A stretch of 64,000 nt of DNA. Source: a virus (lineage: Duplodnaviria > Heunggongvirae > Uroviricota > Caudoviricetes). The position numbers and the translations under genes are program-made. The notes below the pieces were generated by a model, which saw nothing but the letters and a program-made list of their open reading frames with translations, was not told where the DNA came from and ran no database searches. The DNA is taken from the IMG/VR virus record IMGVR_UViG_2703718819_000006. One strand, 5' to 3'. This document shows positions 1,148 through 50,588 of this stretch, piece by piece. The stretch's first letter is position 1. Every line of letters begins with the position of its first letter.

Positions 1148-1689
1148 TACGATGCCTCTAACTTGTCTAACTCTTTCAGCCCTTCACGTACCGCGTTCAC
1201 AATGCGTTCCAGATACTGGTATTTCGGGTTTGGTACCGTTGGCCAGTCGGCATACCACGGATCATCACCAAAGAGATTCAGCAGTTTGTTACCGACGCCG
1301 AAACAACAGCAGCTTTCTTTTACGTCATCGGCGTTTTCCGCCTCGTCCCACATTTCACGAGCCAGTACGGCGTCGATTTCTCTCTCTCTTCGTAACTTTA
1401 TGATTTCTGACTTCACGAAAAGCAGATTTGCATCGTTGTCATCGTCGACCGTGCTTAGCAGTTGAGGGTCGAAATTGTCGATTAGATAATCGTTGCTAAC
1501 TCGCTTAATGAACGTCTGCACATCATCACCGCCCATAGCAAACCAAGCCGCAGTCCACGCTTTTCCGTAGCAGGTGATGGTGATTCTTCCCTTACCAGGT
1601 TCGTAGTTTTCAATCATCACTCGAACCGGATCGAGACGCTCCAGCTCTGTCAACACAAAGGAAAGAACATCTATTTTTTCTACCTTCAT
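1147..1689 (-). CDS. hypothetical protein
   Basis: ORF track 1147..1701 begins on GTG; ATG at 1689 has GGGAGG RBS and ATGA overlap with upstream stop. Confidence 0.5.
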   Translation of the reverse strand: MKVEKIDVLSFVLTELERLDPVRVMIENYEPGKGRITITCYGKAWTAAWFAMGGDDVQTFIKRVSNDYLIDNFDPQLLSTVDDDNDANLLFVKSEIIKLRREREIDAVLAREMWDEAENADDVKESCCCFGVGNKLLNLFGDDPWYADWPTVPNPKYQYLERIVNAVREGLKELDKLEAS

Positions 1690-2327
1690 GCAGCCTCCCA
1701 CGCGCTCCAGATCAGCGATTTGTGTTTTTCATAACGTTTGATGTGTACCGGTTTCAGAAGCGCAATACCTTCAGTGACTTTCGCCTTTGCGCTTAATAAC
1801 AACGGGTGTTCTATACCTATCCTCTCCATGTACTCGACAACATCAGCGTTGGCACCAATCTCCTTCCCGTTAAAAAGTACGTCCAGCATCAGCTCTTTCT
1901 CTGCAAGGTAGATAGCTGAAAACTCAGGATCGCGACTCACGATAGAAGAGGTATTGTCGAGCAGGTCAGCCAGCTTGATCATGCGCGTCTGCATGTCGAG
2001 ATTTTGCTCCAGCTCCCGGACATTGATGATGAAACGCTGTATTCGATTGCCGTCTTCTGGCCTTGCAATGTTGGTCAGAGCCTGAACCATTTCAGCTACG
2101 TGATCACCGAAGTGATCACGAACCATCTCTATGGTTACATGGGTGTCTTCGACCACATCATGCAGAAGCGCCGCGATTTGCATCTCCACGGTTCCGTCAT
2201 GCAATGCAACAATCTCTCGGACAGCAACCGGGTGGTTGATGTAGTTTTCGCCGGTATATTTTCTTTTCTGACCAACGCCACCATGAGCGCCAGCGGCGAA
2301 CATATGTGCTTCGGAAATACTAGACAT
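1686..2327 (-). CDS. HD-domain phosphohydrolase, SpoT/RelA-hydrolase-like small alarmone ((p)ppGpp) hydrolase
   Basis: Motifs HPVAV, LHDVVEDT, IKLADLLDN match the HD hydrolase domain of SpoT/Mesh1-type enzymes. Confidence 0.7.
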   Translation of the reverse strand: MSSISEAHMFAAGAHGGVGQKRKYTGENYINHPVAVREIVALHDGTVEMQIAALLHDVVEDTHVTIEMVRDHFGDHVAEMVQALTNIARPEDGNRIQRFIINVRELEQNLDMQTRMIKLADLLDNTSSIVSRDPEFSAIYLAEKELMLDVLFNGKEIGANADVVEYMERIGIEHPLLLSAKAKVTEGIALLKPVHIKRYEKHKSLIWSAWEAA

Positions 2328-15751: not shown

Positions 15752-16621
15752 TTATTTTTTGATCATTCCGTACATTGCTGAGGCTTTAGCTTGCTCAACA
15801 AAGGAGGATAAATCGACATCACTATAGGTTGGAGACTTCAGAATCTTTCCATCGGAAATTCGAAAACCGATCATCTTATCGGTGCCATCAGCATGGCGAA
15901 ATCCCAGGTCAGAAGAGTCGTATTTGCAGTTGGCCACAGCATGGCGACGCTCTTCGGCATCTGCAGGCCATAATTTTGTCATGTTGGACCGATGAATTTC
16001 GCCAACCAGCTCGACGACATTGATACCGAGAAAATCAGCCAGTCGATAAGTCATCATGCACGCCACATAGATTTTGTTCATTACACGGCGCAGTTCCTGA
16101 ATCAGCTCAGAATCCTTAACAGTCTTCTTCTCAAGTTTATCTGCCAGCTCTTCGAGCATACATGACGCCTCACGAGCTTCCTGAAATGGCATTGCCATAT
16201 CATCGAAAACAGTGTTACCAGGCACAAAAATTGTCTGCATAAAGCGATCAATGCTCTGTTCCTGCGTGTAATAAGTCATGCCGGTAGAAATACCACCTTT
16301 GATGGCGACCATCGTACCAACACCAACGTATAAAAAGTCGGCCATTGCATCCAGCAGTTGCTCAATATCCCCATTCATTGCGGCTGGAATACCTTCCACT
16401 ACAGCTTCTTCATGAATCAGGCTTGCACGGAGACGAAGCAGCTCTGGTGTCGGCATAACGCGTCTCGGATGCTGGAAGAGTTCATGAAACTGATCGACCA
16501 TCTTGTAAATACTTTCAGTGGCTACACCATGGCCTTCATGCAATTCATATGGTTCTGGCTTAAATCCAATGAGTCGATCGGTGGCAAGTTTCAGGTGGTC
16601 AGTCAGTTTGGTAAAGTTCAT
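15752..16621 (-). CDS. putative all-alpha NTP pyrophosphohydrolase (MazG or dimeric-dUTPase-like), uncertain
   Basis: Acidic EExxE-type helical motifs; location between thyA and nrdB; weak assignment. Confidence 0.4.
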   Translation of the reverse strand: MNFTKLTDHLKLATDRLIGFKPEPYELHEGHGVATESIYKMVDQFHELFQHPRRVMPTPELLRLRASLIHEEAVVEGIPAAMNGDIEQLLDAMADFLYVGVGTMVAIKGGISTGMTYYTQEQSIDRFMQTIFVPGNTVFDDMAMPFQEAREASCMLEELADKLEKKTVKDSELIQELRRVMNKIYVACMMTYRLADFLGINVVELVGEIHRSNMTKLWPADAEERRHAVANCKYDSSDLGFRHADGTDKMIGFRISDGKILKSPTYSDVDLSSFVEQAKASAMYGMIKK

Positions 16622-16698: not shown

Positions 16699-17841
16699 TT
16701 ACAGGTCTGCAAACTGGCTTAGAGAAGCCTTATCCACGGTAGAATCGATCTGACCTACCAGATATGTGCTTTGCTCTGCCTCTTGTGGTGCAATTTGCAG
16801 TGTGTCGGTTAACAACCACTTGTTCATCCAGACCAGCGGATCAGTGGTAACTTCTGGAAATAAAGCCTTCAGGCCAAGACGATTCATAGCCAGATTGGTG
16901 CGGTATTTTACATAGGTTTTGAGAATATCCGCGTTTAAACCAATCATCGAACCGTCTTTGAAGAGATAGTCGGCCCAGTTCATTTCTTGTTCGGCGACTG
17001 ATTTCATGGTGTCGTAAATGACGTTTTCTTCATCAGCAGCAATCTCTTTCCACAATAAACCTTCGCGACCGGTACGCATGAAGCGGATCATGCGTTCAGT
17101 TCCTTCGCAATGCAGAGCTTCATCACGGGCAATAAAGCGCATAATTTTGGTGTTACCCTCAAGCAACTTCCGTTCACCAAAGGCAAACGTACATGCAAAA
17201 CTTACGTAGAAACGGATCGCCTCAAGCGCATTAATGGACACCAACGTGCGGAAAAGCTGACGATGCAAAGGGTATGGCTCCCAGCCATATTCATTTACGT
17301 ACAGACGCTCAAATTCCTTCTCACCTAACGACTGGCGCTCGCAGGTCATCCCATAAAGCCTGTCATATTCAGCAGAGATACTGATCGCTCGGTTGATGAT
17401 TTCTTCATCCGTAACAATACCGTCAAAAACAATACTCGGATCGTCCACCATGCCACGAATAATGTGGGTGTAGCTGCGGCTATGGATAGTCTCAGAGAAA
17501 GACCACGTTTCAACCCACGTTTCCAGTTCAGGAATAGAGATAAGCGGCAGCAGCGTTGCATTTGGACTACGTCCCTGAACTGAATCGAGTAACGTTTGAT
17601 AACGGAGATTGCTCAGAAAAATGTGACGTTCGTGGTCCCGCAGCTTCGTGTTGAAGTCGATACGATCGCTCGAAATATCAACTTCTTCCGGCCGCCAGAA
17701 GAAAGACAATTGACGTTCAATCAACTTTTCAAAATCACGGTATTTTTGCTGATCGTAACGTGCCACGTTGACAGATTGTCCGAGGAACATAGGCTCTTTG
17801 GTTGCATCATTAGCACCCAAACGGAACGTTGAATATGACAT
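16699..17841 (-). CDS. nrdB: ribonucleotide reductase class Ia beta subunit
   Basis: Near-collinear with enterobacterial NrdB ([42 protein letters not shown]). Confidence 0.95.
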
Positions 17842-17947
17842 GTGTTTTTCCTTTTTCTTTTTTGGTGCGTTTAAACAAGTTGTTATCTTATGTGTTTAAA
17901 CAAGGCTTACAAATCAAAGAGAAGGTGGGGATATCCCCCACCATATG

Positions 17948-47524: not shown

Positions 47525-47712
47525 TTAGGTCTAAAATTTAAATCTGTAATATCTATAGAGAGGAATTGCACGAAAACCGATAACCCTTTATAGCGAGGAT
47601 TATTGGTTTATTTTTGTTATGGCGTCGTTGTTCCGCCGGGATTATCAAGTTCGATTTTGAGATTTTGATCAGAGCGTTGGCCCTGTGGGACACTGAAGCT
47701 ATTACTTTTGGA

Positions 47713-48129
47713 TCAGGAGGCGTGAAACTTTTCTGCAACGTCTGAAAAAAACTTTAGCAACCTAGTATCTCTAGCAGACATGCGATCGTGAGCTGGAGTG
47801 ACTAAACCCATCAGCAAATAACGGCCGCTCTCCCACATATGCTCGGTATAGATGAGATAGTGATCTGAGGTTCGATTGTAGTTTTCTTGCCTTGCAGTCC
47901 AAGTTAACTGGTAATGCAAATTTACATGAATATGTTGGACGTTAGCGTCAACGGCAAACGGAGGAAAGTCGAATGGCGCATCCCTACCGAGAAGGTTGGA
48001 CGGCTTACCCGTGGATTTGTAGGTAATGAACTCAGTTTTGAGCTGACTTTCCAGATCAGGATAAACGACAAACGTGGGTTGAAAAAAATCAACCCACGTA
48101 TCTTGACTGTATTCAGCCGTCAATGCCAT
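47713..48129 (-). CDS. hypothetical protein; possible YafO-family toxin-like (weak, from memory)
   Basis: Motifs GRDAPFD, HIHV, RTSDHYLIY, YLLMGLVTPAHD; overlaps upstream gene by 10 nt. Confidence 0.3.
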   Translation of the reverse strand: MALTAEYSQDTWVDFFQPTFVVYPDLESQLKTEFITYKSTGKPSNLLGRDAPFDFPPFAVDANVQHIHVNLHYQLTWTARQENYNRTSDHYLIYTEHMWESGRYLLMGLVTPAHDRMSARDTRLLKFFSDVAEKFHAS

Positions 48130-48668
48130 TTAGCCGCAGCCTTGTTGCCAGTCATCAATAGATGGTTCATGGCAGAAAGGTTCACGCCAGACTCACGCAC
48201 ACAAGAGGTGCGAGTAATCTGATCAATCAGATTTAGATAATTTTTGGCGGCAATACTGACCATTTTAATAGCTTTAAAGAAGGCAAACTCTACAGCGTTT
48301 TTGTCGTAAGACAAAATGACGTCTTTTTCAGGTAACATCAAAACGAAAGATTCTGCGATACCGGCTACATGAATAGTTTGATTCTTAATTTCTTCCGCTA
48401 CATTGATAGCAGCAAAGAAGTCAGTATCAGCATAACGAGCAAGTTCAGCGCGGCTTGCGCGAAGTTCTGTCGCTAGCTCATTAAGGGCTGCTGTAAGATC
48501 ACTGATGTCGGTTTTATTGACTCTAGCGCCCATCTCATAAACCCGCTCTACAATAGTAGGCTGACACGCAACCGCTTTTGGTTGCGGCTGGATACTGGCA
48601 AGAACCAGTGCCACTGCTGCCTGTAAATGCTGGATTTTAAATTTCACGATAGACTCCATTGTCGTCAT
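48120..48668 (-). CDS. hypothetical protein (upstream partner of 47713..48129)
   Basis: ORF track. Confidence 0.45.
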   Translation of the reverse strand: MTTMESIVKFKIQHLQAAVALVLASIQPQPKAVACQPTIVERVYEMGARVNKTDISDLTAALNELATELRASRAELARYADTDFFAAINVAEEIKNQTIHVAGIAESFVLMLPEKDVILSYDKNAVEFAFFKAIKMVSIAAKNYLNLIDQITRTSCVRESGVNLSAMNHLLMTGNKAAAKWH

Positions 48669-48795
48669 TTCTCGACGAGGCGTAGCATTCTACTACTGAA
48701 TCTAACTATAAGCTAAAAAAACTTGGTTGCATATGCGACTTAGACTGCAAAACACGAAATGAAAAATTAAAGGCCGCTTTCACGGCCCTTTAAAG

Positions 48796-49608: not shown

Positions 49609-49695
49609 TGGCGGAGAGTAATGGAATCGAACCATCATCGCTTGCGCAATGGGACGGTTTTCAAGACCGCTTGAGCACCATGCTCCCTACTCTCC
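49609..49695 (-). tRNA. tRNA-Ser (anticodon TGA), type II with long variable arm
   Basis: Hand-folded: acceptor GGAGAGT/ACTCTCC, anticodon loop CTTGAAA, T-loop GGTTCGATTCC, encoded GCCA 3' end. Confidence 0.7.
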
Positions 49696-50341
49696 AATTG
49701 TTGTGGTGCCGGGTGCCTCCCGGTGTCCTTTGGCTGGTTATCCACCGTGAACGGGGCCACAGATGTCATAAGATGAGCAATATAACCATTTCCCCGCGTG
49801 CGCTTAGCCGCATTCACCACAACGGAAAGAGCATTCACATCTCGCGTGCCGCCACGAATAGCAACTCAGAGAGTCGAACTCTGAAAATGCTCTTACCTGT
49901 TGTGTGCTGTGTCACTCCCTCCGCTATTACCTGGCTTTGCCTCGACCTTTTAGGTTGCGTCCGATGATAAACAGGGCTGTCGGAAATTTGTCTGTGGCAC
50001 AGCGATAAGAGAACTCGATGCATTTAAGCCAAGCCCCATATGGGAAGTTCTCTTATCTGTTGTGCGCTCCGTTTCGTGGAGCTAACGGCGGGTGAACAGG
50101 CCGCACCAGGTTGGACATATTTCAGCGTTATGCTGTTGCAAGAGAGCCAAATTGTGATGGTCGGTGCTGAACTCCGACACAGGGTTGTAGCAAGCCCCGC
50201 AAAGCGCGCACTACTGTAGTTACGGCACATCAGCCTGTGCATTCATCACAATGTTGAGAACACTGGTTGTCACGCGGCAACGCAACATTTATTCATAAAT
50301 TGGGATATGAACCCGTTACGCCAATGTTCTCAATATTATGT

Positions 50342-50417
50342 TGGTGCCGGTTAACGGACTTGAACCGCTGGCCATTCGCTTACAAAGCGACTGCTCTACC
50401 AACTGAGCTAAACCGGC
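50342..50417 (-). tRNA. tRNA-Thr (anticodon TGT)
   Basis: Hand-folded: acceptor GCCGGTT/AACCGGC, D-arm GCTCAGTTGGTAGAGC, anticodon loop TTTGTAA, encoded CCA. Confidence 0.7.
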
Positions 50418-50421
50418 AATT

Positions 50422-50508
50422 TGGTGGGGAGTGATGGAGTCGAACCACCCGAGTCGCAATGACGGTAGATTTACAGTCTACACCGCTACCTCTACGGACT
50501 AACTCCCC
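50422..50508 (-). tRNA. tRNA-Tyr (anticodon GTA), type II
   Basis: Anticodon arm GTAGA-CTGTAAA-TCTAC, T-loop GGTTCGACTCC, acceptor GGGGAGT/ACTCCCC, encoded CCA. Confidence 0.75.
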
Positions 50509-50513
50509 TAAAT

Positions 50514-50588
50514 TGGCGATGGTGGGTGGATTCGAACCACCGACCAGTTGGTTAACAGCCAACTGCTCTACCGCTGAGCTACACCATC
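50514..50588 (-). tRNA. tRNA-Asn (anticodon GTT)
   Basis: Anticodon arm GTTGG-CTGTTAA-CCAAC, T-loop GGTTCGAATCC, acceptor GATGGTG/CACCATC. Confidence 0.75.

Follow-up and report, generated by a model that had tools for sequence, protein, structure and literature searches.

Single-domain hydrolases belonging to the RSH (RelA/SpoT homolog) family, known as small alarmone hydrolases (SAHs), have been described both in bacterial toxin-antitoxin systems and in phages. The SAH of Salmonella phage SSU5, denoted PaSpo, neutralized all five toxSAS toxins against which it was tested, namely CapRel, PhRel, PhRel2, FaRel2, and FaRel (Jimmy et al., PNAS 2020, PMC7229694, Table 1). The same universal neutralization, via hydrolysis of the toxin product, was found for ATfaRel from C. 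marina and for the SAH of Salmonella phage PVP-SE1, which in the classification of these authors belong to the PbcSpo subfamily rather than to PaSpo (PMC7229694), and the animal SAH MESH1 resembles PaSpo in neutralizing toxSAS as well. In the discussion of that work, alarmone hydrolase genes were proposed as a way for incoming phages past alarmone-mediated defense (PMC7229694). PaSpo is now a standard reagent for toxSAS neutralization: its leaky expression is enough against FaRel2, and it has been co-expressed to purify PhRel2 and to produce CapRel-SJ46 (PMC9712102). Here, we describe an SAH gene near the start of a 64,000-nucleotide stretch of DNA from a Caudoviricetes virus (IMG/VR record IMGVR_UViG_2703718819_000006; the whole stretch is referred to below as the window), which, judged by its sequence matches, is an SSU5-like phage-plasmid of Escherichia coli. 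From the combination of sequence comparison, structure prediction, and the published properties of the SSU5 protein, we consider it probable that this gene encodes a stand-alone SAH of the PaSpo subfamily and is an accessory gene of the element with a role in toxSAS counter-defense.

A single-domain RSH hydrolase

The preliminary description of this DNA, made from the letters alone, had pointed to a 213-aa open reading frame (ORF) at 1686-2327, to three motifs (HPVAV, HDVVEDT, and KLADLLDN) aligning with the HD hydrolase domain of SpoT and Mesh1, and to the absence of a synthetase domain. These observations were borne out. The ORF lies on the minus strand and starts with ATG, and the motifs begin at residues 32, 56, and 118 (Table 1). 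The Pfam domain HD_4 (RelA/SpoT-type HD domain) was matched over residues 8-135 (67.8 bits; gathering cut-off, 27.2; E = 1.1e-18), and the only other significant Pfam match was the overlapping, generic HD domain. PHROG 990, annotated as “metal-dependent phosphohydrolase,” also matches the protein (E = 1.5e-54), and a search of PDB sequences retrieved SpoT, Rel, MESH1, and bacterial SAHs with E-values from 1e-13 to 1e-4.

The NCBIfam model spoT_relA (TIGR00691) was matched with E = 4.9e-24 across positions 1-123 of its 687 only, which belong to its N-terminal hydrolase portion; therefore, the protein corresponds to the hydrolase domain alone. Whole-protein cut-offs were not reached, either for TIGR00691 (84.6 bits vs 499.2) or for the SpoT equivalog (60.5 vs 947), and on these scores we rejected the architecture of a long bifunctional RSH protein (SpoT or Rel). 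The long RSH proteins share with the window protein a homologous HD domain (E = 1e-12 to both Acinetobacter baumannii SpoT and Mycobacterium tuberculosis Rel), whereas the remainder of their multi-domain architecture is missing from it.

The complete H...HD...D set of metal ligands and the ED dyad are present and align with their counterparts in MESH1, SpoT, and Rel. In a HMMER alignment, the HP, HD, ED, D, and N residues of human MESH1 correspond to H32, H56-D57, E60-D61, D121, and N125. Among 38 homologs with identity down to 42%, there is no variation at R22, Y24, Y29, H32, P33, H56, E60, D61, T62, K118, D121, and N125, whereas D57 is conserved in at least 90%; in one homolog (P0009), HG replaces HD. 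MESH1 (HDDC3) of human and Drosophila (3nr1, 3nqw, and 5vxa) is similar to the window SAH in being a single-domain RSH hydrolase of identical fold that carries the full set of H, HD, ED, D, and N motifs. It differs in its low sequence identity (~26%) and in an insertion of ~17 residues and a longer C-terminal tail, both of which are characteristic of the phage-plasmid clade and absent from the homologs of 160-190 aa.

An AlphaFold model built on the 38-homolog alignment has a predicted local distance difference test (pLDDT) score of 96.9 and a predicted template modeling (pTM) score of 0.92. When this model was compared with the PDB using Foldseek, all 50 matches listed were to RSH-family proteins (SAHs, MESH1, Rel, SpoT, RelA, and the close homolog Lmo0812), each with a probability of 1.00. 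Among these listed matches are MESH1 (3nr1; target-normalized TM-score 0.83), the Pseudomonas aeruginosa SAH, and Corynebacterium glutamicum RelH, as well as Thermus thermophilus Rel in complex with ppGpp and full-length SpoT. According to the model, the window protein is an RSH hydrolase with an all-helical fold; together with the sequence matches, this supports its assignment as an SAH, that is, a single-domain RSH protein, with a predicted 3'-pyrophosphohydrolase activity.

Orthology to PaSpo of phage SSU5

The SSU5 counterpart, SSU5_099 (YP_006906731.1), has been annotated as [quoted passage not shown] and later as “metal-dependent phosphohydrolase.” This protein is also 213 aa long and aligns with the window SAH without gaps, with 87% identity (186 of the 213 residues); it is the product of the only HD_4 gene of SSU5 and is encoded at the equal genomic position in the equal gene order. 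The two loci have in common the hairpin of the upstream intergenic spacer, the ribosome-binding site, the overlap of stop and start codons (ATGA), and the downstream gene. None of the 27 substitutions between the two proteins falls on an invariant column, and 17 are located in the final 65 residues. The ratio of nonsynonymous to synonymous substitution rates (dN/dS) is 0.18 for the whole gene and 0.12 for the catalytic residues 1-150; the SAH gene is under purifying selection relative to its SSU5 ortholog. By this orthology, the window SAH is a probable member of the PaSpo subfamily in the classification of Atkinson and Jimmy.

The window SAH and SSU5 PaSpo are therefore alike in length, in their invariant residues, and in being encoded by elements of one phage-plasmid family. 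The differences are the host lineage, Salmonella for SSU5 vs E. coli for the window, and the gene located just upstream of the conserved spacer, which cannot be aligned between the two. The further suggestion of the preliminary description, that the enzyme counters alarmone-based defense toxins, gains support from the neutralization of all five toxSAS by the ortholog with 87% identity (PMC7229694).

Search for a toxSAS partner

ATfaRel and its toxSAS are neighbors within a toxin-antitoxin operon; the window SAH, in contrast, has no toxSAS neighbor. The ORFs neighboring the SAH gene gave no significant Pfam or PADLOC matches in the search for a partner, and the annotation of NZ_CP126951.1 (99.6% identical) contains no RelA/SpoT synthetase in the region equivalent to the window. 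CapRel-SJ46, compared with the six-frame translation of the window using tblastn and phmmer, yielded no match, with the limitation that a single query was used and very divergent synthetases could escape it. Synthetase neighbors of the SAH were likewise not found in three other lineages. A toxSAS toxin-antitoxin pair, in which the SAH would be an ATfaRel-like type IV antitoxin, was rejected because no partner was found beside the SAH or in the window. This absence fits an orphan enzyme acting in trans. When known anti-defense genes were looked for near the SAH, the Pfam scan of the ORFs between 5.3 and 16.6 kb revealed only TerB and a PRA-PH/MazG-like protein.

Substrates, proposed mechanism, and alternative explanations

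FaRel2, PhRel, PhRel2, and CapRel make no alarmones; instead, they pyrophosphorylate tRNA at its 3'-CCA end, and aminoacylation of tRNA modified in this way is restored in vitro by two SAHs, MESH1 and ATfaRel (Kurata et al.). The toxicity of FaRel is caused by accumulation of ppGpp and ppApp (PMC7229694). Because four of the five toxSAS neutralized by PaSpo pyrophosphorylate tRNA CCA ends, tRNA 3'-pyrophosphate is probably a substrate as well as (pp)pApp. Thus, the relevant substrates probably include tRNA 3'-pyrophosphate in addition to (pp)pApp and (p)ppGpp, which refines the preliminary description, where (p)ppGpp or related alarmone signals had been named. PaSpo rescues cells both from the tRNA-modifying toxins and from FaRel, which is explained most parsimoniously by a broad 3'-pyrophosphohydrolase that would act on pyrophosphorylated tRNA, on (pp)pApp, and probably on (p)ppGpp. 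The other half of the preliminary interpretation, action on (p)ppGpp and the stringent response, remains an inference.

In the proposed mechanism, a divalent metal would be held through H32, H56, D57, and D121, and the E60-D61 dyad would cleave the pyrophosphate esterified to the ribose 3'-OH. In characterized relatives, the metal is Mn2+. Given 87% identity and intact catalytic residues, the window allele is expected to be active in the same way as the SSU5 ortholog, which upon co-expression in E. coli removes the toxicity of FaRel, a producer of (pp)pApp and ppGpp, and that of CapRel, PhRel, PhRel2, and FaRel2. In nature, removal of the toxin product in trans would allow the phage-plasmid to become established or to multiply in hosts equipped with abortive-infection systems of the toxSAS type, such as CapRel. 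Lowered (p)ppGpp could be a secondary effect.

Several points weigh against this role. Dephosphorylation of tRNA has been shown for MESH1 and ATfaRel only. The neutralization data for PaSpo all come from plasmid co-expression; in vitro biochemistry of PaSpo was not found in the literature searched, and the papers searched contained no direct measurement of its (p)ppGpp hydrolysis, of ppGpp pools, or of an influence on the stringent response. Systems of the CapRel type are rare in E. coli, so selection for countering CapRel may be weak. A promoter scan detected no sigma-70-like promoter on the minus strand upstream of the SAH gene. Finally, the gene is dispensable, being absent from phage Cyrano and from most SSU5-like plasmids of Escherichia.

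Manipulation of the stringent response is a possible alternative, compatible with toxSAS counter-defense, to which we assign a rather low probability as the main function. Under this scenario, the main substrate would be host (p)ppGpp, lowered so that transcription, translation, and the supply of nucleotides stay high while the element replicates lytically or is maintained as a plasmid. The fold and the active site are indeed those of (p)ppGpp hydrolases, including MESH1 and Rel with bound ppGpp, and the SAH gene shares a leftward-transcribed block with nrdAB, thyA, DHFR, and a MazG/PRA-PH-like pyrophosphohydrolase. Phage infection can reportedly be restricted by the stringent response (PMC13483052). 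However, the phenotype that has been demonstrated experimentally is toxSAS neutralization, which is mostly ppGpp-independent, and the failure to find ppGpp hydrolysis or pool measurements for PaSpo in the literature searched counts against this scenario as well. Moreover, most Escherichia relatives with the same replication module lack the SAH, which implies that the basic life cycle does not need it. The PRA-PH/MazG-type nucleoside triphosphate pyrophosphohydrolase of this block (289 aa, 15752-16621, minus strand; PF01503, E = 1.3e-8), denoted “phosphoribosyl-ATP pyrophosphohydrolase” by PGAP and adjoining nrdAB, thyA, and DHFR, gives the element another candidate enzyme for the pyrophosphohydrolysis of nucleotides or alarmones.

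The beneficiary could also be the bacterium rather than the phage, if the enzyme produced in a lysogen degraded (pp)pApp delivered by Tas1-like toxins secreted by competitors. Neutralization of FaRel, which is toxic via ppGpp and ppApp accumulation, by SSU5 PaSpo, the shared fold of dedicated (p)ppApp hydrolases (7smg), and persistence of the element as a plasmid, which makes lysogenic-conversion functions plausible, are all in line with such host-protective immunity. Nevertheless, the Bacteroides (p)ppApp hydrolase showed the weakest similarity among the RSH matches (E = 2.4e-6; query-normalized TM-score 0.47), and we regard this explanation as improbable. Least credible of all, to the point of being very improbable, is a metabolic phosphatase that does not act on alarmones, for example, an NADPH phosphatase, an activity also reported for MESH1, or an inactive remnant. 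The best structural matches do include MESH1 with NADPH and with 3'-phosphoadenosine-5'-phosphosulfate (5vxa and 9chy). Against it, toxSAS neutralization by the ortholog shows action on toxSAS products in vivo, and the conserved catalytic residues together with purifying selection argue against a remnant. Toxin counter-defense by a broad 3'-pyrophosphohydrolase is the explanation that we favor.

The SAH gene in a swap-in cassette of SSU5-like phage-plasmids

Across its first 6 kb, the window matches non-mobilizable plasmids of ~100-110 kb from E. coli and its relatives, with identity up to 99.6%, as well as Salmonella phage SSU5 and, in E. coli, the SSU5 relatives CMS-2020a, Cyrano, and PhiR41_1. 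The best-matching record, NZ_CP126951.1, with which the window is collinear except for small insertions, has the gene repertoire typical of SSU5-like phage-plasmids: a RepB initiator, nrdAB, thyA, DHFR, RNase H, Dam methylase, exonucleases, and tail genes. In this record, the SAH is named “HD domain-containing protein” by PGAP (WP_024219422.1).

The SAH gene is located in a variable accessory region, beside a gene for a DUF4942 DNA methyltransferase (Table 1). Homology with relatives that lack the SAH stops at ~2353, 25 nt 5' of the SAH start codon; for many Escherichia plasmids, megablast matches break off at query position 1207, equivalent to position 2353 of the window. This position is the edge of a conserved intergenic element that is followed by unrelated gene cassettes in different relatives. 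In phage Cyrano, for instance, a homolog of the upstream gene is followed by the same conserved spacer and then by an unrelated gene, with the SAH absent. Given this break in homology, the element marks the upstream boundary of a swap-in cassette. The element may act as a boundary for recombination or as a signal for transcription. Its hairpin is present in the minimum-free-energy fold (whole-spacer z of -2.7) and was also picked up in a scan for terminator-like structures. On the coding strand, the conserved hairpin is not an intrinsic terminator of the canonical kind.

Table 1. Features of the SAH locus in the window
Feature	Position	Strand	Description
SAH coding sequence, 213 aa, PaSpo-type ortholog of SSU5_099	1686-2327	minus	ATG start, TGA stop at 1688-1686; assigned from HD_4, SSU5_099 identity, AlphaFold model, and fold matches
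HPVAV codons, residues 32-36	2220-2234	minus	H32, first predicted metal-ligand histidine; aligns with the NHP histidine of MESH1
HDVVEDT codons, residues 56-62	2142-2162	minus	Predicted HD metal ligands and ED catalytic dyad; aligns with HDTVEDT of MESH1
KLADLLDN codons, residues 118-125	1953-1976	minus	D121, last predicted metal ligand; N125 conserved; aligns with KLADKLYN of MESH1
Shine-Dalgarno GGAG	2334-2337	minus	6 nt 5' of the SAH ATG, read from the sequence
Conserved intergenic element	2353-2416	minus	9-bp hairpin (2396-2416; AAGGCCATAAGTTGTGGCCTT), then T-rich tract and TTGTGAAAATAACCA; shared with Cyrano and SSU5 in a three-way alignment
Downstream 180-aa ORF (phrog_3451, PF26211)	1147-1689	minus	ATG overlaps the SAH stop (ATGA); GGGAGG upstream of the junction
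DUF4942/DNA methyltransferase protein, 561 aa	3593-5278	minus	PHROG 6263; PADLOC “mad2” match, E = 8.5e-16

The 180-aa ORF downstream of the SAH, for which no matches were found in PDB, NCBIfam, or PADLOC, was considered as a required partner of the enzyme and rejected: the two genes are translationally coupled, but proteins of the PF26211/phrog_3451 family are found without the SAH. Homologs of this ORF occur in Enterobacter plasmids devoid of the SAH and are frequently encoded on Enterobacteriaceae contigs of Mb scale; in E. coli, by contrast, the SAH gene is never found on the chromosome. Because the family is common on such contigs and occurs on its own, we treat the linkage of the two genes as a mosaic one, probably not a functional partnership.

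The SAH gene was identified in 41 of the 5,426 complete E. coli genomes, in all cases on a plasmid. The whole SAH locus is contained in 40 PLSDB records, and many Escherichia plasmids match only upstream of the breakpoint. SAH versions with ~41-57% identity are encoded by Klebsiella and other SSU5-like phage-plasmids, on the other side of the DUF4942 methyltransferase gene, which is a constant neighbor of the SAH, on either side, in three divergent phage-plasmid lineages. In one of the loci that carry a divergent SAH (L007; 41% identity), a gene containing a Tad2-like Pfam domain (PF11195; positions 1563-1877 of that locus) is located ~2 kb upstream of the SAH gene, which hints that this region collects counter-defense genes. 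Chimeric SAHs (homologs P0010 and P0012 and plasmid NZ_CP099319.1) are present in Enterobacter, including a 186-aa protein annotated as “AAA family ATPase” with 84% identity across 73% of the query; other Enterobacter chimeras are 206 aa long, are 82% identical over 67%, and have no Pfam match. For one plasmid copy, the match was confined to the N-terminal 114 residues.

Other cargo of the element

Four tRNA genes, Ser(tga), Thr(tgt), Tyr(gta), and Asn(gtt), are located on the minus strand at 49609-50588 and might compensate for tRNA-targeting defenses; the reported targets of FaRel2 are tRNA-Gly and tRNA-Thr. Compared with NZ_CP126951.1, the window contains a 1.26-kb insertion (47526-48787) that is probably a toxin-antitoxin module: it includes an ORF for a YafO-family toxin (47713-48129; PF13957, E = 2.7e-21) and an overlapping 182-aa ORF (48120-48668) with no Pfam match. 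At ~60.7-61.5 kb, corresponding to positions 17120-17918 of NZ_CP126951.1, from which the annotation is taken, a DUF1778 protein and a GNAT N-acetyltransferase form a pair resembling a TacAT-type toxin-antitoxin module. In NZ_CP126951.1, the region just upstream of the window's equivalent (61084-64375) encodes metG (methionine--tRNA ligase) and apbC, an unusual cargo for a phage-plasmid.

Possible implications for conflicts among phage-plasmids

The enzyme and its toxSAS-neutralizing biology have already been published for the SSU5 ortholog, and the idea that phage SAHs serve to escape abortive infection, whether based on alarmones or on tRNA pyrophosphorylation, was proposed in 2020. The present analysis adds that the window is, by its sequence, an E. 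coli SSU5-like phage-plasmid, that the cassette boundary lies at ~2353, that the gene is rare and confined to plasmids in E. coli, and that no toxSAS partner was found beside the gene or in the window. It also confirms that a genuine enzyme active against toxins can be recognized from the sequence alone.

The gene encoding CapRel-SJ46 was identified on plasmids in 14 of the 5,426 complete E. coli genomes, which makes it a plausible natural target of the SAH within the same species. We tentatively suggest, as a conjecture that may well prove wrong, that the SAH is a swap-in counter-defense cassette deployed in conflicts among phage-plasmids. It would enable SSU5-like elements to establish themselves or replicate in Enterobacteriaceae that already contain a CapRel-armed P1-like phage-plasmid, such as SJ46, by stripping the tRNA 3'-pyrophosphate faster than CapRel adds it. 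If so, the patchy distribution of the SAH would track exposure to toxSAS defense, and the system would provide the first native demonstration of an SAH as an anti-defense factor in real infection or induction.

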